This document shows, in pieces, positions 30,649-64,000 of a DNA stretch of 64,000 bases. The translations under genes and the position numbers were made by a program. The notes below the pieces were generated by a model, which searched no databases, was not told the origin of the DNA, and saw nothing but the letters and a program-made list of their open reading frames with translations. The stretch is from NCBI GenBank assembly GCA_036867785.1, contig CP145413.1:682001-746000 (forward strand), given 5' to 3'. Each line of letters opens with the position of its first letter. Position 1 is the stretch's first letter. Origin of the DNA: Plasmodiophora brassicae (Eukaryota).

Positions 30649-30795
30649 TGTCAGGAGACGACACGACGGACGACTATTGTCTCCACAACACGGAATTAAC
30701 CGACTGCCGAAGCCGTCGGTTGCCGTGGACGTTTATTCAAACTGCGCGGCTGCGCGACCCCCGTCGCGGTCGTGCCATAACAGTATAGTCCCCTG

Positions 30796-34779: not shown

Positions 34780-37700
34780 ATGAGTCGACCACGCAGTCTG
34801 GGATCGAGTAGCGACTCACCAGAGCATCCGGGCGGTGATGCTTCTCGGGACGTGAATATCTTCTTTGAGCATGTGCGCGAATACCAGCGTCGTCGCGCAG
34901 CTGCCGATTCTGATCGCCAGCGGAACAACGTCGCCGCCGGCAACCGTTTTCTTGAGATTGCTCGTCGAGCTCTGAGCGAACGGCGCAATCCTTCAGTCGA
35001 CGTCATGCACAATCCGTTTCTCCGGCTCTTCGATGAGCACCGTCGGCGGCGCCAACGTCGACCGACGATGACTGTAACGAGGCATGGAGACAATGTTTCT
35101 GTGGAGCCGTTTGATATCCGCCCGGCGCTGTTGGAGAACAATGCCCGTTCCAATGTTCAGGAATTCAACGAGTGGCGCGAAACTAACTGCAAAGAGTACA
35201 TGAATGAGCTCAGGCTTTCCGATTTCCTGGTGGCCGAAATCAGCAAGAAGCTGGAGGAACTCGAGGCACCGAACATCGATCCGACAATTCTCGACAATTT
35301 CGATGAGGTGATGCGGTCAAAGGGATCGTACAACTCCCTCAATAATATGCTGAAGATTGCTTCCAACCGTGCTAAGGAGTCACGTATTCGTCGAAATGCA
35401 CTGGTAAGAACACACCGCTTTGTTCACGAATGTAAGTTCTCATGGTCATTTGGTAGATTCGTGATATTTGTGAGGCCAAAGGGGTACCAAGTGACGACTT
35501 TACTGATGCTCTGGATGTGGACCTGAATGCTACAGCCGAATCTATCAGTGTGTTACGCAGACACCTTCTGGATATGGGGGTGACGTCACCCTTTATCAGG
35601 TACAAGGCCTGCTGCGGTGGTCATGTGTGGCCCGATGGCGCAGATGTGCCATCGTCAGAGGCCTGCTGTCGTCAGTCAGAGCCGTGTATCTACTTTTCGC
35701 GAATTTTGTTTCTGCAGTGTCTGTTCCGGTCGAACACGTTCTGCAAGATGCTCCACGACGAACTCGACCGCCATCGAGATATCGCATCGGCTCCTTTGAG
35801 AAGTACGTATATGCAAGACTGGACGGATGGAGACTTCTTTTATACGGTGTATTCGCCGTTTATGAAGTCTTGCCTCGAGAACGGCGAGTTCCCTCTCTCG
35901 TTGTCATCCATGATCGACGGGGCAGATCTTCTCAGCTGGGGATCTAAGTCAGTTGTTCCTCTTGTCCAAATTGTGATGGGGTTACCGGCTTCGGTTCGCT
36001 GTCACCCTTTATCAGGTACAAGGCCTGCTGCGGTGGTCATGTGTGGCCCGATGGCGCAGATGTGCCATCGTCAGAGGCCTGCTGTCGTCAGTCAGAGCCG
36101 TGTATCTACTTTTCGCGAATTTTGTTTCTGCAGTGTCTGTTCCGGTCGAACACGTTCTGCAAGATGCTCCACGACGAACTCGACCGCCATCGAGATATCG
36201 CATCGGCTCCTTTGAGAAGTACGTATATGCAAGACTGGACGGATGGAGACTTCTTTTATACGGTGTATTCGCCGTTTATGAAGTCTTGCCTCGAGAACGG
36301 CGAGTTCCCTCTCTCGTTGTCATCCATGATCGACGGGGCAGATCTTCTCAGCTGGGGATCTAAGTCAGTTGTTCCTCTTGTCCAAATTGTGATGGGGTTA
36401 CCGGCTTCGGTTCGCTGCAATCAGGGCCTTATGTCCCCTGTGGCATTGATCCCAAACGTTGCTAAGGGTCATCGACGTGCAGTGCAGAGACTGGACGCTT
36501 TTGAGCTGAATTTGATGAACTACTATGGATTCCCAGTGTTCGACGCAGTCGAGAAGAGAGTCAAGCATGTTCGATGCATCTCGGCAGTGATGGTATGTTG
36601 TCCACATATAACAGTTTGTATGCTGCAATACCCGTATTAACCGCCTCCATCAGCCAATGGATTATATCGAGCTCTGTCACACGAGCTGTACTAGCCAGAA
36701 CGGCAAGCAGGATGCTTGCAATAAATGCAGCATCAGAGGCCGTTCAGCAAACCGATCTGTCAAGTACCATGGGGCATTTATGTTCGCGTCATCGGATGTC
36801 CAACGCCATGTCAGTATACTGGTAGCGTTGCTAAGTACGGGTTGATCACTGAAGATTTATGCTTGCTGATATAGTTCTGTAAAAAATATGAAGACATGCT
36901 GGAGTATCTCGACGCATTGCCTTCCGATAAAAGGCCGAGCGACGTGCGTTCACTTGATCAGCTACGTGATGATGTGCGCTGCAAAGACGACGACGAAGTT
37001 CGGCGTCGCATGACGTCGAGGAACGTCGGTGACCGTGGTGGATACCGTCACCCGGGTTATGACGTCTACTCCGTTGGCCTTCTGTGCAGTTTTGGACACG
37101 CGTCCAATTACGTGCACGATCCTATGCACGCCATCTGCATGCGTGCTGTTCGCCCGCTTTTTCAAGCGATCGACTTCTACGGATCGGGTTCATCATATTA
37201 CAATCCTGAGGTAAGCGGGCCTGCTCGACTGCACGGCCAACTGTAACACCGTTTGCACAGACTGAGAAACTGTTCGGTCGTGGAGACTGTCCCAGTCCTG
37301 TGTGGGCTTGGCCCAATAACACTGCCTATCCCGCTAAAGTGAAGGCTGGTGTAAAATGGTCCTCCCTGGCTGTTGAAATCGATCATGTTTTGGAGAACCT
37401 TACGTGGGTATCGCGAACCGGTGGTTCAACGAAACCAAGGAACCCTTTGGTGAGTTCCTGGTGGAAAGCAGCTGACTCCCTTGTTTGGCTCGGCGACGTT
37501 GGCATTGGGATCTGGTGGTCTGTTGTTTCGCGGGTGCTGGTTCGAACCCGTCCAGACTCTCCCATTGCTTCGTTCTGGATACCGATGTTTCGTTTTCTCG
37601 ATGCGCTGTCATCAATGCTTTCGAAGGCTTTTGTTAGAAGCAACCTAGATCGTGTGTTTTCTAACTTTCTCGACGCTCTGGCGCATCTAGAATCTGTCAT

Positions 37701-42535: not shown

Positions 42536-45500
42536 TGTCAAACAACATGTCCAGTACAACCAGCAGCACATGCCTGCAGCACGCCGTCACGCACTCCGAA
42601 ACTCCGCGCTCGCCGCCGTTGGCAGCCGTTACGTCGTCGGCGACTACGTCGCCACTGTAACGTCCACCGTGCCGTTGCGCAAACGCCGTACGTAATACAC
42701 TTCACTTCGTTATCGTCTTCCACAGATTAACAGTCGTAAGCGCAGGCGCTTTACCTCTACTCGTCATGGCCGAGCGCCAGGCGACTCCGACACCGAACGC
42801 GGATGACGACCCGTTGAATCACCTGACGATCGACGAGATCGACATCCGTCTAGCCGAAGCGGAGGCAAAGGTCGCAAGGCAGGAGAAGATCGACCGTCTT
42901 CGAATCCTGCAGCAGCAGCTGGCGCGCCCGCCCAGCTGTCCACCGATCCCGTCCGTGCCGATGGTCGCCGAGGCGCACACCCGAAGCGACGCAGGTCGGC
43001 TACCGCTGCCCAAGTTCGATGGAACGCCAGACTCGTTCACGTCCTGGATTCAGACCGCGGCCCTCTGGCTCCGCAACCGTGGATACGCGAACGTCATCGG
43101 GATCAACGAAGATGGCTCGCCGACCGCTACAACCGGTACGACGGACGACCCAGCTCTGGAGGCGGCCGCGCGCGAGATTCTACTCGTCCACATGCTGGAT
43201 CACAAGATCGCGTCTGCGTTGTCCTTGTTTCAAGCAGGATCGGCTGCCAAGTGCTGGCGCGTGCTGTTCCAGGCGTACAGCCCGTCGTCGCTGGCCTCGG
43301 TTGTGCGCGCCATCCGCGACCTCGTCACGATCCAGCACACGCCCGGCGAATCAGTCGCCACTTACGCGGCCAGAGTTCAAGCAGCAGCTCATCGCGTCCG
43401 CGCAACGGTACCGACCGAAATGCTGTCCCTTACTGACGCTCTGGTTGCCGTCCTCATTCTGGCCAATGCATCATCCGACCTGGACGCGGTCGTCGCCGGC
43501 CTGCACAACCGTGCACTGGACACGCTGCCCAGTGTCTCCGAGGTCGTTGCGTCACTGACGAGCGAAGAGATTCGCATCCGAGACGTGCGGGACCGACAAG
43601 AATCGTTCCAGACGGCCAACCGATCCAGCTGCAATACGTCGACACGTACCCGTGGACCTCGACGTAACGAGTCCTGCGTCTTTCATCCGGGATCGAAGCA
43701 TACGAATGGCGAATGCAGCCTGCAGCGGCACATCCGGCATCGAGACAACAACAACAACAACAACAGCAATACATCGTCACCAACGTCCCACGAGTATCCA
43801 TCGTCTGGCGCTCTCCCGACAGATCCGGCATCCGAGCCAACGCGTGCATTGTCGGCACGCCACTCCATCGACGCGAGCGCGAGCTCAATGGGACTATTGG
43901 ACTCGGCCTGTTCCACAACGATGACACCCCTGCGCCAGCATCTCAGCCGTTATCGACGCGTCTCTGGACCAGAAGTCGAACTAGCTGATTTGTCGCGAAC
44001 GACTACGTCCGGTCGGGGCGTGATGTCATTCGGCAAGGATGCCCAGGCGATGAGTATCGACTCACTGCACGTCCCACGACTTGGTCAAGCGCTTGTTTCA
44101 GTCGGACAACTCACCCGATCAGGCCACAAGATCGTATTCGACGGCGCCACCGCGACCATCTACTCGAAGGACAGCTGGACGGCACCCACCGGGCAGCCAG
44201 TGGCGATCAGCACCCGTGGACAAGACAACCTGTACCGGATCGCACTATCAGCTCCATCCACCAACAACACGCAACCGACTGTACCAGCCTGTTCCCTGAT
44301 CGTATCCGACATCGCCTGTCGCGCCGCAATGGTCACCGCTGCATCTCCCGATCTGTGGCACGCACGAACCGGCCATCTCGGCTATGGCAATCTGAACATC
44401 CTGCGGAACCGCTGTCGTGGCATGAAATTCGACGGCCCCATTCCCAAGCGTTCGGACCGGTGCCCATGCGAAGCCTGCCTCCTCGTCAAAGGTAAGCGTT
44501 CCTCATTTCCTCCGAGTAAGTCGCGGGCACTTCGTGTCGGCGATCTCGTGCACAGCGACTTATCCGGTCGGTGGCCCGTTGTCGGCATTGGCGGCTTCGA
44601 GTACTACCAGACGATGCTGGACGACTCCACGCGCTACCTGACGGTCTACCTGCTTCGCCGCAAATCGGACGCCCTCGATGTCATTAAGAACTACGACGCG
44701 CGCCTTCGCAATCAGGAAGTGCGAGGTATCGGGGACTTCCAGACCGACGGTGGCGGCGAGTTCAACTCGAAGGCATGCGTCCTGTTCTACAGCACGTCCG
44801 GCATCCTGCACCGCAAGTCAGTCCCGTACACACCGGAACAGAACGGCCGCGCCGAGAGCGTCAATTACACGCTCTGTTGCATCGAGCTATCGATCCGGTG
44901 TCATGCCCACATGCCCGACTCCACGTGGCCCTGGTCGCTGTCCTACTCTGCCGTCCTGTACAACATCCACCCGAGATCCGTCCTTCCCGGACGTCGCACA
45001 TCGTTCGAGGCAGCTCGTCGCGCCCGACCTGACGTCTCGGCCCTTCGTGTCTACGGTTGCGATGCCTATGCCATGCGACCACATCCCCCCACGAAGAAGC
45101 CGAGCAAGTTGGAGCCTCGTCGTGTTCGCGCTGTGTTCATCGGTTTCACGCCCGGCATGAAGGCGTGGCGGTTCTACGACGTGGACCGCGAAGACACGTT
45201 CGAGAGAACGACTGCCGAATTCCTGGAGAACTCGTTCACATTCGGTTTTGGAAGATCGGCCTCGGCCAGTTCATCATCAGCGCCACCATCCAGTCCCGAG
45301 TCGAGCCCTGCGCCGAACGTTGACACGATCGTCCCGACGCCCATCTCTTCCGACGCCATCATGGCACCTCTACCATCGACGTTAGCATCCTCTATCGCAA
45401 CAGCCCCTCCCGAGCAGGCATGTGCTGCTGCTGGTTGTACTGGACATGTTGTTTGACACGCCCCCTCCAGCAGCACACGCCTTGGTACCGGTGTCGATGA

Positions 45501-48811: not shown

Positions 48812-49560
48812 TTATTCGAAGCCTAGCTCCGCCAGTGCCTCTCGCCGGTATCCAGCAGCGCCGGCGTCGAATAGTCCTGATGGAAGGTAGCCACAGTTCC
48901 TGAACAACGCGCGCAACGAGCATTCGCGGTTGGTGTCCAGAACTCTAGATATGACCTTCGGGAGATCTTTCGCCTGGATCTCGCCCTCCTGGTAATGTCG
49001 ACGCAGTGCCTTCTTTACCATCCCAAAGAAGAATTCAATAGGATTGTAGAAAGGGCAATACGCCGGCAAGAAGATTGGGATAATTTCAAGGGATCGCAGA
49101 TAGGCGACGATGTCGGGGTGGCAATGAATTCTCGCACCGTCCATGATCCAAACTGAACGTCGACCTGGATGTTTTTGAACACGGCCGGAAAGAGCATATT
49201 CACGACAGCACTTTACGAATTCAGCACGATTGAAGTTGCCCTCGATCATGAAGGAGCTTTCCAGGCCATCACAGCCTATGAAACAGAGCAAAGAAACGCC
49301 CTTCATGCGGCCGTATTCGCCTCGATAATACAGTTTTTCACCCTATAGGCTGCCGTTAAACAGGCCGAGAAAGCGTATGACACTACAAATACACAACCTG
49401 AATTGCCCAGCCCTTCTTGCGACGCATGCCTCGATTGTCCATCTTACACTCGTCGAGGAACGCAAGAGTCGCGTTGGTCCAGTCGATTTCATTTCACGGG
49501 CGAATCGAAGCACATCGGCCTCCCGGATATGCATAGCCCGCCGCTCGATAAACTGAAAGG
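48812..49560 (-). pseudogene. DDE_3 (Tc1/IS630-type) transposase fragment
   Basis: SVWIMDGARIHCHP..., FLPAYCPFYNPIEFFFG. Confidence 0.8.
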
Positions 49561-52343: not shown

Positions 52344-52998
52344 TGTAGTCCGGGGTCCTATATTTAGCTCCTCATCACCTACGTCAGCATCAGCATCCTC
52401 CAGATATTCACATGCGCCAGAGATTCATATGTCGAGATATGCGGGGATCGAGAGCACGCGATCACGTGCGCCGCTGATGGGAGAGCGGGGTACGGGATCG
52501 ATGGTGGATAAACGGCATTCGTCTATTGTGTCACCCGAGGCTTGACGGAAGACACTATAGTGGCCACTACGTGTCGTACGTTGACTCTCCGTGAACGACA
52601 CCGACGACGACACGACATGGAGCTGACAAGCAGCAGCAGCAGCGGCGGCTCGACAAGCGCTACCATCGTTACGAACGCCGATGCGAGCATCCTGCCCAAG
52701 GCTAACAACCTTGACTCGACATTGATCCTGACGCTGCGCGAGGCGTACAACCGCTACGTCGCCATCTTCGAGGATCGGGAGGCGCAGCAGCCGCGGGGGC
52801 GTCGACTTCGTCCGCAAGGCATCCGGCTGTGCTTCACCGCCGTGCAGTTGAAGGCCATTGCCGAAAATCACCTGGACCTGGACGACGGCGCCGAGGCGTT
52901 GACTGACGAATTGCTGGACGGATGGATCCGACAAGCAGAGCAAGCTGACTCCCGCTGCGACAACTTCAGGTGGACGCCGCGTACCAGCCCATCGCCCT

Positions 52999-57045: not shown

Positions 57046-58122
57046 TGTTCGATGGACTACGTGCTGTCCATCTCGCGAGGCATTCGGCAGCATCTATTAA
57101 GTTCCTCTTCACCGCAGGATTGACTCTGTCAGGGAGTACTGATGTCGAGGCTCCTGTTGCGCTGGGGGTCCACCCATGGGGGTCGGCCGCTGAGCTAGGT
57201 GAATGACACTTTCTAGATGTATATGGACCGGGCTCCACCCATGGGGGTCGAGCGCACCATTGCTGATGTCGTCGTTTGCTACTTTGCATTCTATCAAGGT
57301 ACCCGAGGTTCTTTGATACGCTAAATCGTGTATGCATAGGTGGAAGACGGTCTCGAAGAGGGTGTCCGTAAATGGATTTTCCACCGATTTGTCCCATGGG
57401 GTTACAAGGTGGTTTTTAGTGAGTAGTGGGTGTTCTGCACTCGAGTCTCACACTACCCTACGTCTTCGTCCGTCATTCTCCTCTCGACTGCTCCTCTGAC
57501 TCCGGTTCTGAGTTCGGGAAAAGGCAGTGTAGTCCGGGGTCCTATATTTAGCTCCTCATCACCTACGTCAGCATCAGCATCCTCCAGATATTCACATGCG
57601 CCAGAGATTCATATGTCGAGATATGCGGGGATCGAGAGCACGCGATCACGTGCGCCGCTGATGGGAGAGCGGGGTACGGGATCGATGGTGGATAAACGGC
57701 ATTCGTCTATTGTGTCACCCGAGGCTTGACGGAAGACACTATAGGCACCCGCGAGGGCGCGATCGGAGGCGTCCACATCGGCCAGGGTCGTTGGGTCGAT
57801 GGGAGAGGGAGGCGTCGTTGGGCACTTGGCTTCGTCAGCCGTCGAGCCCGTCGAGCCGGAGCGCGTGACCGTCATCGATACGTACACGATCGAAGAACGA
57901 ATGGGGCGGACAGGCCGAACGAGAGACGATGCGACGACAGACGGTGACGACAGACGGCGACAGACAGACGGTGACGACAGACGGTGACGAACGGTTAAAG
58001 TCGGACGACTATTGTCTCCACAACACGGAATTAACCGACTGCCGAAGCCGTCGGTTGCCGTGGACGTTTATTCAAACTGCGCGGCTGCGCGACCCCCGTC
58101 GCGGCCGTGCCATAACACAAGT

Positions 58123-59320
58123 GGTAGCGGTGCAAGTCCGGGCGGAGGCGGTGGCCGATGGTTCGTTGCTGGTACAACGTCGACGCCGGGGCACGAAGAC
58201 AGCGGCGATCGCGGAAGGCTTCGGCCAGCTAAAGGACGGCGTCGCGACGATCTTGATTGGGAACCTGTTCAGCAGGCGATGTCGGTAGAAGAGCCGGATC
58301 GTGGCGCTGGCGAAACCGGTCGGGAAGCAGCGAATTTGTTCGATGACGGTCGGAGCCATTGTGCCCGAGAAAGGTGGAGCAGAAGCGCCGATGACGCAGC
58401 ACCAGGCAGCGGTCGTGGACGCCGTTCATGTCGGATGGGACAAGGCGACGCCACGGCGCATCCGGCGATGGATAGCTATGCGAATGCGGATCGGTTCAAT
58501 TCGGAGTTCAACCCCGTGGGCAAGACGGAGACGGAGGTCCATCGTATCGCGCTGGTGCCCGGGGCCGAGCCGGTCGCGATGCCGCGGCGACGTCTACACC
58601 CGCACCTCGAAGACCAACTCCTGGAGACGACGGTGCGCTGCTGAAAGTCAGAACGATCCGTCAACGAGTCCATGGGCCGCAGAAGTGGTCATGGCGCGCA
58701 ATGCCAACGGGGGATTCCGCATGGCGGTCGAGTATCGGCGAAGGGCGGGCGAGCAAGAACGGCGGGTGCTGTTCCTGCCTGAGAGCGTTCGGAGCGAGCA
58801 GCTGAGACGGGCGTACGACGATCAAGTAGCGGGACACTTCGGCCAGGCGAGGACGGTGCAGAACTTACGGCAGACGGTTTTCTGGTCAGGCATGGTACGG
58901 GATGCACGTCGCTACGCTGAACGGTGCCGGGCATGCCAGCGGGCCAAGGCTCGAATACAGTCGGCGCAAGGTCTACGACAGGAGTTCGAATTCGTCGAAG
59001 ACGACGTCCCGTTCCTGCCCTGGTATTCGGTTCATGTGGACCAAGTGGTGGACCTACCCAGGACATCCCGCGGGAACGAGCACGTCCTGACGGTCACATG
59101 TCGGGTATGTCACGCGGCGGTGTCCCTGGAGACGGGAGACCCTTATCCGGCACGTGTTCCTCCAGAAGGGGTTCCTGATGATGGTGACGGCGGACCGTAG
59201 TCGGTCGTGGCGCAACGACCTGTTCGAAGTGCTGTGCAAGGGGTTCGGGTTCCGGTTGACGATGGCGGTGACGTATCGCGCGCGAGCGAACGGGATGGCC
59301 GAACGTCCGCATCGATACAG
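58123..59320 (+). pseudogene. 3' part of Gypsy G1 (RT and integrase remnants, internally deleted)
   Basis: HRIAL.PGAEP, STSPWAA.VV...GFRMAVEYR, GHFG..RT...FW..M...C..CQ, VHVD.V..LP. Confidence 0.75.
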
Positions 59321-59353
59321 AGTTTAACCTCACTTTAGTCACACCTCGAAATA

Positions 59354-60371
59354 CCGTAAACTTCGATGCGCTGTGCCTAGCGCATCCTGTGATCCCCTGT
59401 CCAAAAAAAGGCTTCGAACTATTTTGCGACCACCGACTCCGAGGGCCAGTCAGCTCGACATCATATCAGGCCCGAATTTTCAAGGTCGCAACCACAGCAT
59501 GGTCCCGATCCGACAGCAGACCGGCGATGTCGTCCGTCCATGTTGAGATTGTAGGGATCGAGATCGGCAACCGTGGACGCTGCTGTCAAGAGCACACCGT
59601 GTGCGGGTCTGTCCTGGAACCAGACAGCATTGTCCGGTTGCGCATTGTTCAAATCATTAATGGTAAGTCATCCCTAATTCGTCGACGATTTAACGACAAT
59701 GATATCCCCAGATGCGGGCAACACCGAGACGGCAATTGCCGTTTATCGTGTGAGGAACGGTACTGGTCAATGTTTGGTGGGATTCCTGCCCCGTCATTAC
59801 ATTGCGAGAGCCAACCGATTCGACAACCGACTTGCAAGAGTTGCCGAATTGTAATCTCGCTCTGACAATGTGTACGACCGTCGACGGTCGCATCGCCATG
59901 GCGGCATGGCACGTTTTATCCTGCTGTAACGCCATCTATTGTTTATTCTGTATTTGTAAAATAGGGAAAATCATGGCTACGCCATGACCTTTCGGATCAC
60001 TCCAGGCGATAGCTCTTGCAACGATCGGATTATCCACGATGCCACTTGAGGACGTGTTGGTGGATCCAACGGGTCACCGATGGGCTTTAAAGCCTGGAAA
60101 ATTTTCCAGTAACCAATGCTCCCATTGATCCCGGATTCGTGACTTAAATGATCGGTTGATACCACGTCGATCGGCTGAACGAGTGTGGTGCAATGGCTGG
60201 GAACGTACTCCACCTGGACGCCAATACTGTTGATGCTCAACAGCACTGGTGCCATAACGTGGCATCGGAAAGAATCCAGAAGCAATACAGGACTTTGAGC
60301 CTCAACAGGCACACTCGCAATGTACGGTTGTAGACACTGTTAAACTCTGTCAGTCCAATGATCGTGTCATA
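59354..60371 (-). mobile_element. pogo/Tc2-like DNA transposon remnant (DDE_1 transposase 3' part, ~59977-60340)
   Basis: TA+CCGTA terminus at 59352-59358; LLLDSFRCH..., VPSHCT..VQPIDV(G)INRSFKS. Confidence 0.7.
59527..59929 (+). pseudogene. HIRAN-like accessory gene in the pogo element (intron 59663-59711, internal stop at 59852)
   Basis: VEIVGI...GR.C.EH..CG..L...VRLR|..E.AI.VY....C.VGFLPR. Confidence 0.5.
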
Positions 60372-61072
60372 TGTGACGACAGAGCAAGATCTGTCAACCA
60401 CACGGATTGACCGACTGAGGTCGGTCCAACGCCGTGGACGTTTATTGTAGTAGTGCGCTGCCGAGGAGCCTAATTAGGTGCCGGCTGAGTCGCCAAGACA
60501 GCGACTCGACGGTGACATAATAGTCCCCTTTTACGGGCGTCGAAGACGGGGTCCGGATTTGTCTGGGTACCGAGCGTGGAATGCCGCGAGCAGGCGATCG
60601 CATCCGCCGGTGCCCTGCAAGTTGAAGGCGGGTTCCCAGGTGCGCTCGGATGCAGGGTAGCCTTCCCAGTCGATATAATACTGCAGCTTACCAGCACGGT
60701 ATCGAGAGTCCAGGACTTCCGTCACGATGAACAGCGGTTGGTCATCGTCGTCGAGCAGAATCGGGGGTGGCGGAGGCTGCACACGATTGGGTATCACGTT
60801 CGGGACGTACGGTTCCAGTTGGGATGCGTGGAAGACGTTGTGGATGCGGAAGGAGGCCGGAAGCAGGAGTTCGTAGGCGACCGGATTGACGATGCGACTA
60901 ACTTCGAAAGGCCCGAGCATTTGGACATCCAGCTTACCGCAAGGCCGGCCAGTCGCAATTGCCCCTCGACGGAGCATGACCAACTCCTCGATCTTGAAGT
61001 CGGGATGAGGTCCGCGTTTCCGATCCGCAGCTCGTTTCATGGTGCTGACAGCACGATGCAGTTGGCGGTGTA

Positions 61073-63916
61073 TGTCACGACTGAGTCGTGTTGGCGACTC
61101 AGCCGGTACCAAATTGGGCTCCTTCGTAGCGCACTAGGTACAATAAACGTCCACGGCGCGGACCGACCTCAGTCGGTCAATCCGTGTGGTTGACTCATCG
61201 TGTTCGGTCGTCACATTTTGACCGACTAACCTTCTGTCGTCGTCTTGTCTCGACTCGTATCGTATTGTGCCGTATCGTATCGTATTGTGCCGTATCGTAC
61301 CGTGCCGTACCGTTTCTATCGTTCGTATTGTATTGCATTCATGGCAGGAGGCGATGGGTCGATTCCGTCATTGGCGGACGACGTCCCATCGTCCGCGAAT
61401 CCGGATGTTGCGGGAGCGTCGGATTTTGCCCTCGGTCCCCTGTCGCAGCTGCACTTCGCGCGGGGTGTTCTGCCACTGGCGAATCATCTCCCTGCACGAC
61501 CGCTCACCCCGCCCTCGCTCAATAGTACCGCTGCCGATTGGCCCGACGACTCTCGGTCCTCTTCGAACCGTCACTCCCCGCCTGCCTTATCGTCCCTACA
61601 CGTTTCTGCCGCCTCGACGTCTCTGCAGGACCCCGGCGGCGTGCCTCGGCATGACCCTGTCTCCTCGACGTCGCAGCATATTGGCGCTTCGTCCGTTGGG
61701 GCTCGGGTGCCGGCGCCACGGGTGTCTCCGGGCCCACCCTTAACGTCTATTGTTGTTCACTCACAAGACATTCCGCGTTTTTCGGGAAGCGATGGTCTGT
61801 CGACGACGCGTTGGTTGACTGCGTTCTCTCGGATCACCCAGACGTCGTTAACGTCTACAAGTCCTCTATCCGGCGATGTGCAATGTGTCTTAACGACAGC
61901 CTTGCAAGGTCAGGCCCTTGAGACTTACCTCGACTTGCCTGCGGACGCGTCTATGGCGGACGTAGCGTCCGTCCTGCTCCATGACTTCCCGGGACCTTCG
62001 TTCAAGCAGGTTGAAGCGAAGTTTGACAACCTGAAGCAGACTGCAGGTGTTGCTCACCACGCACTGGCATTCCAATGCTTGTACAAGGACCTTCAAAGAC
62101 TTGACCCATTGTACAGACTCAATCCGGCCCGCTTGGCGGAAAAGTTCCGCCTCTCGTTGAACCCTGCGCTCTCCGAAGCGCTGTTCTTCTACAACTTCAG
62201 AGACTACGACAAAGTTCTCGAGATGGCGGCTCATCTTGAGTCGAAATATCCAATCGCCGCCATCAACGCTGGCGGTGATGCAAGGGCACAACCCCTGACT
62301 TGCCATTATTGTCACGAGGTTGGGCATTTTATTGCGTCCTGCCCGAAGAGGCCACCGTGCCCGCACTGTCATAAGGTTGGCCACCGCTCATCGCTGTGTC
62401 CCGAGCGGTCCGGCAACCCTCTCCACGTCACTGATCTGTTCCTTATGACGTCTCCCTCAATACCACATCTGTTGGTATCGGTACGCCTCGTTATCGGCTC
62501 ACGCCGTGTCAACGCTATCGCCCTGTTAGACTGTGGTGCGACTTCCAACTTCATCGACTGGTCGTTCTGTCGTCACCATGAAATACCGGTTCGCTCTAAA
62601 TCGCGTGCCATTCCTGTTCGCGTCATCGACGGGCGACACCTGTCTCCAGTAACTCAGGAAACCGTCCCGCTACGTGCTACCGTCGACGGATGTTTCGACA
62701 GCGATGTCGTCCTGAACATGATCCACTCGCCTCAACACCCTATCATTCTTGGGCTGCCTTGGTTGGCGGATACAAACCCAGATATCGATTGGCGTCAGCG
62801 CCGCCTACAGCGCCGCGGAGGAACCCTCGTTGGGATGTCACGCCGTACAGGAGACGTCCATGAGTCTGGGTCCTTCGTCTCTTCGGCGGGACCATTTGCA
62901 ACAGTAAAGCGCGGGGATAGTCTCTCAGCTGGGGTCTCGCCTCCTGCACGAAGCGTTCCTGCGCTTGCGTGTGCCATCCCTTCAGCTGAATCACTCGAAA
63001 CGTTGCCGCTTACATCCGTGTTTGTCGACGGCAAGCTGGCTTCTGTAGCTAACGACGACCACCCGGAGTGCCACATTGCCATTGCTGCCGTCGACGACAG
63101 GCCGAGTCCTTCCGCTTTCGATTATGGTAGCATCCCGGGGGGTCGCCGCCTTCAATGCTACTGTTGCCCCCAGCCGCACCGATCTCTTATCATTGACCCG
63201 TTCAGGCTCCGAGTCCACGCCCCTTATGTCCTCCTTCCGGAACTTGGGCCCCGTTCGACGAGGGGTGAGACGGTCTCTCCCGCCGCCTCCGCCGCCTCCC
63301 TCCAATGATGGCTTCCGAGACGGCCACAGCCTCAATCTTCTGATGTTCGCAACCTTTGTCGCCCTGACCTGGCTCCTAGTTGGGTGGCCGTATTTTCCAA
63401 TAGCACAGCTGTGTACGAGCGCCTCTGCGGAGCCCCCGCCCTTGAATGCGCCCGCCGAGTCCTTCTTTGCACATTTTGCTACGTTCGAGGATGACCAGGC
63501 CTCATCAACCTCGATCGCGTTTCTCAACCCCGATCTCATGTTCCTGGACGCCGCCGCACGTGTGTTTGCCCACAAGCTACATCGACGACAGAGTCTTTCA
63601 CCCCAATTCCTTAGCGAAGTTGATTTCGTTCATTGGACACCTGACGCCCTGACTCGTCGACTGGAGTACAGACTGTCGCCTAATGATGAAGCAGTTCTTG
63701 CTAGGCCTCACCAAATGCTTCCACCCAGACAAGCCCGCAGCCCGTTCCCGGTGCGGCTAAAAGGGGACTATTATGTCACGACTGAGTCGTGTTGGCGACT
63801 CAGCCGGCACCAAATTGGGCTCCTTCGTAGCGCACTAGGTACAATAAACGTCCACGGCGCGGACCGACCTCAGTCGGTCAATCCGTGTGGTTGACTCATC
63901 GTGTTCGGTCGTCACA
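61073..63916 (+). mobile_element. Non-autonomous chromovirus-derived element A with 143-bp LTRs (61073-61215, 63774-63916)
   Basis: LTRs differ at one visible base; near-TSD GTGTA/TTGTA; PPT AAAAGGGGACTATTA. Confidence 0.92.
61341..63308 (+). CDS. Gag (2x CCHC) + aspartic protease of element A; RT and IN absent
   Basis: CHYCHEVGHFIASC, CPHCHKVGHRSSLC, ALLDCGATSNFID, IILGLPWL...NP.IDW. Confidence 0.85.
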   Translation: MAGGDGSIPSLADDVPSSANPDVAGASDFALGPLSQLHFARGVLPLANHLPARPLTPPSLNSTAADWPDDSRSSSNRHSPPALSSLHVSAASTSLQDPGGVPRHDPVSSTSQHIGASSVGARVPAPRVSPGPPLTSIVVHSQDIPRFSGSDGLSTTRWLTAFSRITQTSLTSTSPLSGDVQCVLTTALQGQALETYLDLPADASMADVASVLLHDFPGPSFKQVEAKFDNLKQTAGVAHHALAFQCLYKDLQRLDPLYRLNPARLAEKFRLSLNPALSEALFFYNFRDYDKVLEMAAHLESKYPIAAINAGGDARAQPLTCHYCHEVGHFIASCPKRPPCPHCHKVGHRSSLCPERSGNPLHVTDLFLMTSPSIPHLLVSVRLVIGSRRVNAIALLDCGATSNFIDWSFCRHHEIPVRSKSRAIPVRVIDGRHLSPVTQETVPLRATVDGCFDSDVVLNMIHSPQHPIILGLPWLADTNPDIDWRQRRLQRRGGTLVGMSRRTGDVHESGSFVSSAGPFATVKRGDSLSAGVSPPARSVPALACAIPSAESLETLPLTSVFVDGKLASVANDDHPECHIAIAAVDDRPSPSAFDYGSIPGGRRLQCYCCPQPHRSLIIDPFRLRVHAPYVLLPELGPRSTRGETVSPAASAASLQ

Positions 63917-64000
63917 TTGTAGGTAACGGCGAATGGCCGTCAAGTTCTCCACGCGTTCATCGGCAGAAGGATTGGAGCTACCGTGTTTGCAAGGACGAGG

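Follow-up and report, generated by a model that had tools for sequence, protein, structure and literature searches.

Self-priming, in which an element starts reverse transcription from its own RNA, has been demonstrated experimentally in the retrotransposon Tf1. The accessible text of PMC7175516 describes the Tf1 primer binding site (PBS) as complementary to the first 11 nt of the element's own RNA. The cluster of chromoviruses from fungi and vertebrates is the Tf1/sushi group, and the available portion of PMC10085805 gives self-priming as its common feature and fungi, vertebrates, and non-seed plants as its hosts. Self-priming has also been predicted for Tcn1 and TAR, according to the excerpted text of PMC6317226. 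Here we examine compact chromoviruses of the Tf1/sushi group in the clubroot parasite Plasmodiophora brassicae, which, judging from their sequences, very probably prime minus-strand DNA without a tRNA, by way of the 5' end of their own RNA. The mechanism is already known; what is new is the rhizarian host, the very short R-U5, a covarying arm in U3, and the existence of fold-back copies. Our searches of open-licence PMC and bioRxiv turned up nothing published on how P. brassicae elements are primed. The P. brassicae genome papers PMC11191646, PMC6823432, and bioRxiv 10.64898/2026.10.14.759018 gave no element-level description in the available parts of their main text, and their supplements may hold repeat libraries.

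The window, by which we mean the whole 64-kb stretch of DNA that was analysed, has a nest of LTR retrotransposons in its right half. The RT-RNase H region of a related element at another place in this genome shares 100% identity with a named P. brassicae protein, and the best named match of a host gene is in Spongospora. One of these, A1, runs on the plus strand from a 143-bp 5' LTR with TG..CA ends (61073..61215) to a 3' LTR (63774..63916), the two being direct repeats that differ at one base, and its flanks GTGTA/TTGTA make a 4/5 target-site duplication (TSD). Between the LTRs are an open frame for gag, with CCHC knuckles, and aspartic protease (61230..63308, plus strand, first ATG 61341, Pfam RVP_2), and a polypurine tract read from the sequence as AAAAGGGGA (63759..63767, plus strand). 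RT, RNase H, and integrase are all absent, making A1 a non-autonomous gag-protease element. The related family A2 does have RT and integrase, and its copy in the window is the host of the A1 insertion. The A2 integrase C-terminus, with a Tf2-type SH3 and a chromodomain (60534..61067, minus strand; Pfam PF24626 E = 1e-16 and PF00385 E = 6e-12), is broken by A1, and integrase similarity picks up again beyond 63916. The A2 3' LTR (60372..60517, minus strand) is 146 bp long and has the same primer and U3 arm as A1. The gag proteins of A1 and A2 match at 56% and the protease regions at 74%; A1 is a deletion derivative of A2. Rfam gave 0 matches over 57900-64000.

After the A1 5' LTR there come TT and then the PBS, TTGACCGACT (61218..61227, plus strand), with no TGG and no tRNA PBS. 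The PBS is the exact reverse complement of AGTCGGTCAA (61171..61180, plus strand), inside the LTR, and this putative self-primer stands in the context TCAGT and starts 29 nt from the start of AATAAA (61142..61147, plus strand). The exact complement, the lack of a TGG or tRNA PBS, and the TCAGT context after AATAAA had been described in an earlier note on the same DNA, and our rereading of the sequence agrees with it. The 10-mer would be the first 10 nt of the RNA, and the AATAAA a TATA-like promoter element that may also serve as a poly(A) signal. Dinucleotide shuffling of the A1 LTR produces a complement of at least 10 nt in 16/3000 trials; for the other families such a complement is reached in 1-81/3000 shuffled LTRs. 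TGG is found within 5 nt of the LTR in 0 of the 6 LTR types described below, and the PBS is not complementary to a tRNA 3' end. For an A1 RNA starting at 61171, the predicted probability of primer-PBS pairing is 0.89-1.0. A genome search scored 40 matches of 53 candidates; among 30 fetched loci there are 17 5' LTRs (13 A1, 4 A2), and TTTTGACCGACT follows the LTR in 17/17, a count that leans towards matches because the search query contained the PBS.

Family B, on the minus strand, has the Pfam domains RT, RNase H, integrase, SH3_Tf2-1, and Chromo. The earlier note had suspected that the end of its 5' LTR (58002..58117) was deleted, and this is correct: a 27-nt deletion has removed the end of the LTR together with most of the PBS. 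The motif TTAACCG (57998-57992), which the note had taken for the B PBS, is present, but it belongs to the leader, as a second PBS-like copy. In intact B copies the sequence runs TGACA, TC, then TTAACCGAC and T or C, with 9-10 nt complementary to the B primer AGTCGGTTAA (58040-58031, minus strand). The compensatory change that the note had proposed for B is therefore real, since it is seen in intact copies that pair over 9-10 nt, although it had been read from the wrong copy and as a pairing of 7 nt. An intact B 3' LTR of 134 bp lies at 30649..30782 (minus strand), and its element is bounded by the TSD ACTTG. Twelve dispersed fragments of B U3 plus 4 nt were considered as a new family with another primer and rejected, all of them being one capture inside a 0.5-0.7 kb repeat.

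Searching with the integrase of B brings in three more families, namely E (LTR 87 bp, AGTCCGTCAAA / TTTGACGGACT, 11 nt complement), F (LTR 96 bp, 9 nt), and G (LTR 120 bp, 10 nt). The LTR/PBS complement is thus 9-11 nt in A1, A2, B, E, F, and G, and the five autonomous families have LTRs of 87-146 bp. In six out of six LTR types the complementary segment begins at cAGTC, 29-32 nt after AATAAA, and the PBS begins 1-2 nt past the LTR end. R plus U5 is 33-57 nt long across the types, and in E the AATAAA stands at LTR position 12 of 87. The other families have RTs 70-79% identical to that of E. Two pairs of the complement have changed with both sides altered each time: position 8 from C:G to T:A in B, and position 5 from G:C to C:G in E. 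The RT tree of the families is (F,G),(B,(E,A2)), which places B and E on separate terminal branches, and the two changes are therefore independent. The covariation between R and PBS that the earlier note proposed to look for among copies exists, as two compensatory changes between families; none was seen inside any single family. The terminal pair is missing in F and in some B copies. A junction pattern in which five bases may vary on either side has 149 matches, against 92 for the control. By eye we counted, among the 100 matches listed, 34 LTR-PBS junctions of A, B, E, and G (10, 6, 14, and 4), of which 31 are perfect, 2 are G.U-compatible, and 1 has a mismatch. The 34 exclude a 3' LTR whose flank matched by chance and a degenerate match, F cannot fit the pattern, and the remaining rows are unscored.

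The elements fit a Ty3/gypsy chromovirus (the order PR-RT-RH-IN, a C-terminal chromodomain, TG..CA LTRs, a polypurine tract, and a 5-bp TSD), to judge from the Pfam domains of B and of the A2 fragment and from the TSDs; A1 itself has only gag-PR. In a careful RT tree of 35 selected rows, the five P. brassicae families form one clade (100/99), which nests within a larger clade (100/99) of RTs from fungi, fish, amphibians, and environmental sequences. An AU test rejects a grouping with plant and algal chromoviruses (p = 0.0015). An 89-row quick tree, superseded by the 35-row tree, carried long-branch warnings and gave the same placement. Tf1, sushi-ichi, and Tcn1 are not among the 35 rows, and named database proteins from fungi, fish, and amphibians serve to recognise the Tf1/sushi cluster. 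With this understanding, the phylogeny agrees with the earlier note's comparison to Tf1 by putting the P. brassicae elements in the fungi/vertebrate, Tf1/sushi-like chromovirus clade. In a PDB search the nearest RT is that of Ty3, with no Tf1 entry among the 60 matches listed. Environmental relatives were drawn from 78 metagenome loci, 30 of which have a long direct repeat; 12 were measured, picked by eye. The seven with both LTRs complete have LTR/PBS complements of 12, 9, 8, 8, 8, 7, and 6 nt, and the two longest sit 34 and 40 nt after a TATA motif. Loci L197, L202, L225, L229, and L250 were tried as further support and are uncounted, their LTR end having been picked as the best-scoring CA, which biases them.

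When the RNA is folded from its predicted start, the primer-PBS pairing probability is 0.66-1.0 over all LTR types, and an inner U5 stem and a central duplex are predicted in every one. In A1 the inner stem occupies 61184..61216 (plus strand) between primer and PBS in the minimum-energy fold, and is like one of the flanking duplexes of Tf1. The third duplex of the Tf1 "pretzel", between U5 and leader, can be drawn for E and G, and it is no better than with shuffled leaders (417-1558/2000). Upstream of primer nt 2, at a distance of 4-10 nt, U3 repeats seven nucleotides of the PBS core; this U3 arm, as we call it, pairs with primer nt 2-8 over 7 bp in 7/7 P. brassicae LTR variants. The arm tracks both compensatory changes, being GACCGAC in A1 (61161..61167, plus strand), AACCGAC in B (58056-58050, minus strand), and GACGGAC in E. 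The equivalent U3 pairing in nine environmental relatives is 0-5 bp. With U3 attached, fold prediction brings primer-PBS pairing down to 0-0.3 in A1, one B variant, F, and G, and leaves it at about 1 in A2, the other B variant, and E. Since the effect is uneven across LTR types, masking of the primer is plausible, not uniform. The arm may keep the primer copy covered in RNA that has U3 ahead of it, such as 3' LTR or read-through RNA, and so leave priming to the genuine 5' end; we rate this step, the least certain of the scheme, at slightly less than even odds. A1 is covered by contigs of three probable RNA runs, and contigs cannot show transcript starts. A rise in contig depth at 61164-61367 was considered as evidence for the start and set aside, the leader being a tandem repeat of variable length.

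By analogy with Tf1, transcription would start at, or within a base of, the A in cAGTC, about 30 nt after the TATA-like AATAAA. The first 9-11 nt of the RNA would fold onto the PBS, closing a small loop of about 25-50 nt, and the RT would cut behind the primer with its RNase H and extend it. A1 has no RT, so it would need these steps in trans, probably from A2. As in Tf1, the plus strand would then copy the primer into a new PBS, and because of this copying, covariation of R and PBS is to be expected automatically. In such a self-primed element the single-stranded PBS tail would be complementary to the element's own R, and a plus strand ending in the PBS could snap back on R and copy U3 backwards. 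In roughly half of Tf1 cDNA molecules the PBS stays single-stranded at the 3' end, as stated in the accessible part of PMC11042837.

Three B loci (C7, C11, and C12) have the structure that such a snap-back would leave, with an LTR or R-U5, a spacer, the PBS, and then the reverse complement of U3, rc(U3), the switch lying inside the 10-mer. The rc(U3) runs over 69, 77, and 77 of 77 nt. At C7 the element is flanked by the TSD TGTTT. The C12 element has the TSD GGTGG, its rc(U3) arm is itself the integrated end, and its head-to-head U3 junction has two extra bases on each side. With a degenerate fold-back pattern, three of the four matches are the B loci and the fourth (C15) is without LTR context, so that the pattern shows none in A, E, F, or G; a family A search allowing one mismatch also had 0 matches. 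Another head-to-head inversion in B, C6, has its junction away from the PBS. The order of parts suggests that the LTR-PBS-rc(U3) loci arose by snap-back during plus-strand synthesis. Their junctions show PBS-R pairing in DNA, not the RNA start position. A DNA fold model puts masking strongest in A and B, with almost none in E, and expects most snap-back in E, not B. Masking as a guard against fold-back was considered and rejected on the mismatch with this model, fold-backs being found only in B and none in E.

Several other explanations of the complement bear weighing. A very unlikely one is that the PBS binds a piece from the 5' side of a host tRNA that has been cleaved in the D-arm (Leu(TAA), Val, or Lys), the LTR copy being a structural partner or by-product. 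Half-tRNA priming does occur in copia elements, according to the excerpted text of PMC6317226. The 10-mer resembles a tRNA D-loop, and nt 14-26 of Leu(TAA) pair over 13 nt (3 G.U) with the B PBS, from the LTR end onward, and over 12 nt (4 G.U) with the A PBS. By duplex energy, the best unfolded tRNA outranks the 10-nt self-primer in B (-14.2 and -16.5 against -12.1 and -12.8) and beats self in F (-18.3 against -14.5), but it does not in A1, A2, E, or G (in E, tRNA -13.0 against self -16.7), and the comparison favours tRNAs by setting whole unfolded molecules, the best of 51, against a 10-mer. The set behind these values holds 51 distinct short ARAGORN sequences with 24 anticodon labels, a few of them probably false, from 63 of 457 candidates scored, and is without Met, Asp, His, Phe, Trp, Tyr, and other isotypes. 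A different tRNA comes out best from one family to the next (Leu, Val), G.U pairs are needed, and E alters the base that faces the conserved GG of the D-loop and compensates in its LTR instead. A search for the A-box plus the 10-mer gave 80 matches against 129 in the control; ARAGORN, given 40 of the 80 loci, called one tRNA (Ser, with a mismatch), and neither exact match is a tRNA. We know of no element primed from a D-arm fragment. The earlier note had expected no host tRNA, whole or fragment, to pair better than self; this holds for tRNA 3' ends, no PBS beginning with TGG, and in A1, A2, E, and G, but in B and F tRNA fragments pair comparably.

It is also improbable, if a little less so, that AATAAA is a poly(A) signal with cleavage near 61170, so that the 10-mer starts U5, the pairing forms a U5 stem as in retroviruses, and another primer is used. 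AATAAA with a GT-rich stretch is usual in Metaviridae LTRs including Sushi, as the available text of PMC3601003 has it, and a GT-rich sequence is present at 61184-61192. Family E has only 11 nt of LTR upstream of AATAAA, however, which leaves no room for a promoter and R. The linear distance from AATAAA to the primer is fixed (29-32) whereas that from AATAAA to the hairpin varies (10-16), a pattern consistent with promoter spacing; a TATA motif stands at the equivalent place in relatives, and no alternative primer site is visible. The explanation we hold least probable, to the point of being hardly credible, is that the three motif copies are inverted repeats homogenised by template switching or DNA repair with no priming role, the fold-backs being rearrangements or assembly chimeras. 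Template switching can homogenise short inverted repeats and keep them alike, the C6 inversion with its different junction would suit such an origin, and the per-family shuffle frequencies of 1-81/3000 are modest. Against this, position and length of the complement are kept although the RTs are only 70-79% identical to that of E, the complement sits where a primer must bind, and two fold-back loci have clean 5-bp TSDs, with the rc(U3) arm as the integrated end in one.

Self-priming independent of tRNA, as the earlier note had proposed, is therefore the reading we retain, supported by the complement, its fixed position, the two covariations, the RT clade, and the fold-backs, with the RNA start and the RNase H cut carried over from Tf1. 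The self-priming signature is thereby extended to Rhizaria, with natural compensatory changes, and its cis element comes down to an R-U5 of 33-57 nt, short enough for direct RNA probing. Fold-backs offer a sequence-only test for self-priming elsewhere, because such a trace is left only where the PBS is complementary to the LTR of its own element. The U3 arm raises a point that the Tf1 model leaves, the exclusion of the identical primer sequence in the 3' LTR. More speculatively, and with doubt on our part, U3 arm, primer, and PBS might form a three-part switch that separates the 5' from the 3' primer copy in a near-minimal LTR, with snap-back as an inherent failure mode that gives integrable DNA with U3 at both ends and a route to inverted-repeat derivatives; all gypsy lineages examined in this genome may be tRNA-independent by at least 2 different routes, counting a clade with a palindromic PBS and a third lineage with a 17-nt complement.

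Among known systems, the plant Tcn1 clade and the TAR copia lineage (Neumann et al. 2019, PMC6317226, in the text available) likewise have self-priming predicted from a sequence signature. Tcn1 is, as here, an out-of-kingdom member of Tf1/sushi, in different hosts and with no Tcn1 row in our tree, and TAR differs in being a copia lineage. Skipper of dictyostelids (Spaller et al. 2016) is also a protist chromovirus without a TGG PBS; as described in the accessible part of PMC5006619, it carries a polypyrimidine tract in place of a PBS and its LTR offers no complement, whereas the P. brassicae elements have an exact LTR complement. As a separate observation, families C and D form a second gypsy clade in the window, with a post-LTR palindrome that takes in the last base of the LTR and no second complementary copy downstream within 70 nt. 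The Conserved Hairpin Site of fungal GalEa copia elements (Donnart et al. 2017, PMC5445492, in the portion available) bears on these palindromes, not on the A/B mechanism, and differs in that the P. brassicae palindromes are in gypsy elements. The closest likeness is to Tf1/Tf2 of Schizosaccharomyces pombe and to Tj1, Tosmo, Tcry1, Tcn1, and sushi-ichi, which, like the P. brassicae elements, have no tRNA PBS and a 9-11 nt post-LTR complement. Shared with Tf1/sushi are the chromodomain integrase with a Tf2-type SH3, an RT in the fungi/vertebrate cluster, and an inner U5 stem by the PBS, predicted here. The differences are a rhizarian host, where the accessible text of PMC10085805 describes the group from fungi, vertebrates, and non-seed plants; LTRs of 87-146 bp with R plus U5 of 33-57 nt; a weak third (U5-leader) duplex; and, in P. 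brassicae, a covarying 7-bp U3 anti-primer arm together with genome-fixed fold-back copies.

A third gypsy lineage in the P. brassicae genome, with 36% RT identity to the probably self-priming chromovirus family E and a position outside the chromovirus cluster in the RT tree, is represented by locus L293 (positions 220-430, contig C13 near 999.7 kb). The 17 nt following its LTR are the exact complement of LTR positions 77-93, and on this pairing the lineage is a candidate for another self-primer, one of unusual length.

The leader of A1, the non-autonomous gag-protease family, carries a pyrimidine-rich tandem repeat 3' of the PBS (window 61235-61320) that differs widely in length among copies, and analogous repeats are present in the leaders of A2 and B. 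Beyond the protease, the 3' half of A1 (window 62850-63700) resembles A2 only in short patches and has open frames on both strands, none with a Pfam match. The A-like LTR at L303 (C18, around 680.1 kb) has diverged: it has retained the primer 10-mer and lost the U3 arm, the PBS-like copy that pairs with the primer, together with the AATAAA region, and no PBS follows it. The A2 pol copy L127 on C12 has a long pol frame without the Y[LIVM]DD motif, which is present in copies of B, E, F, and G.

In the contigs of probable RNA runs, depth is highest, up to 2900 in run X1, over an insert at 59350-60340 that separates B from A2 sequence, and the sole ORF scanned there gave no Pfam match. Within this insert, a GT..AG joint at 59661-59711 appears in three probable RNA runs. 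Further GT..AG-bounded skips, each in single contigs of such runs, lie over A2 integrase and A1 sequence at 60635-60691, 61007-61060, and 63125-63205, and it is possible that element or antisense transcripts are spliced there.

Pieces of family B are found in other arrangements. Twelve copies (L165-L176) of a dispersed 0.5-0.7 kb repeat, on C4, C5, C9-C13, C16, and C20, hold a captured B U3 with primer nt 1-4, then a 24-nt tandem array; the separate locus L177 breaks off 8 nt into the primer. Two loci hold complex rearrangements: at L181 (C12:20167-20700) a U3-U3 head-to-head junction in which each end carries two additional bases, like joined unprocessed cDNA ends, and at L032/L052 (C6:227676-228326) an LTR-leader head-to-head inversion. 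In the window, a single B element with TSD ACTTG (30649-58117, minus strand) extends over 27 kb and contains nested insertions: gypsy families C and D, both of the palindromic-PBS type, a copia element at 42661-45456, and, at 48815-49342, part of a DDE transposase. The nest is possibly a centromere-like retrotransposon cluster. A perfect 417-bp tandem duplication occupies 35585-36417.

The palindromic-PBS type forms a second, distant gypsy clade, with about 25-30% RT identity to A/B/E and named relatives mostly from oomycetes. A perfect 10-12 bp palindrome overlaps the 5' LTR end and replaces the PBS, as at window 52558-52569 (plus strand) and 48269-48260 (minus strand); further loci are L289, L290, L296, L291, L297, L132, L288, L322, and L323. 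Six palindrome cores, all different, are GTGGCCAC, GTGCGCAC, AAACCGGTTT, GAGATCTC, GAAGCTTC, and GTGATCAC. Such a palindrome could permit priming between two RNA copies. The palindrome is similar to CHSeq1 of the fungal copia element GalEa (PMC5445492).
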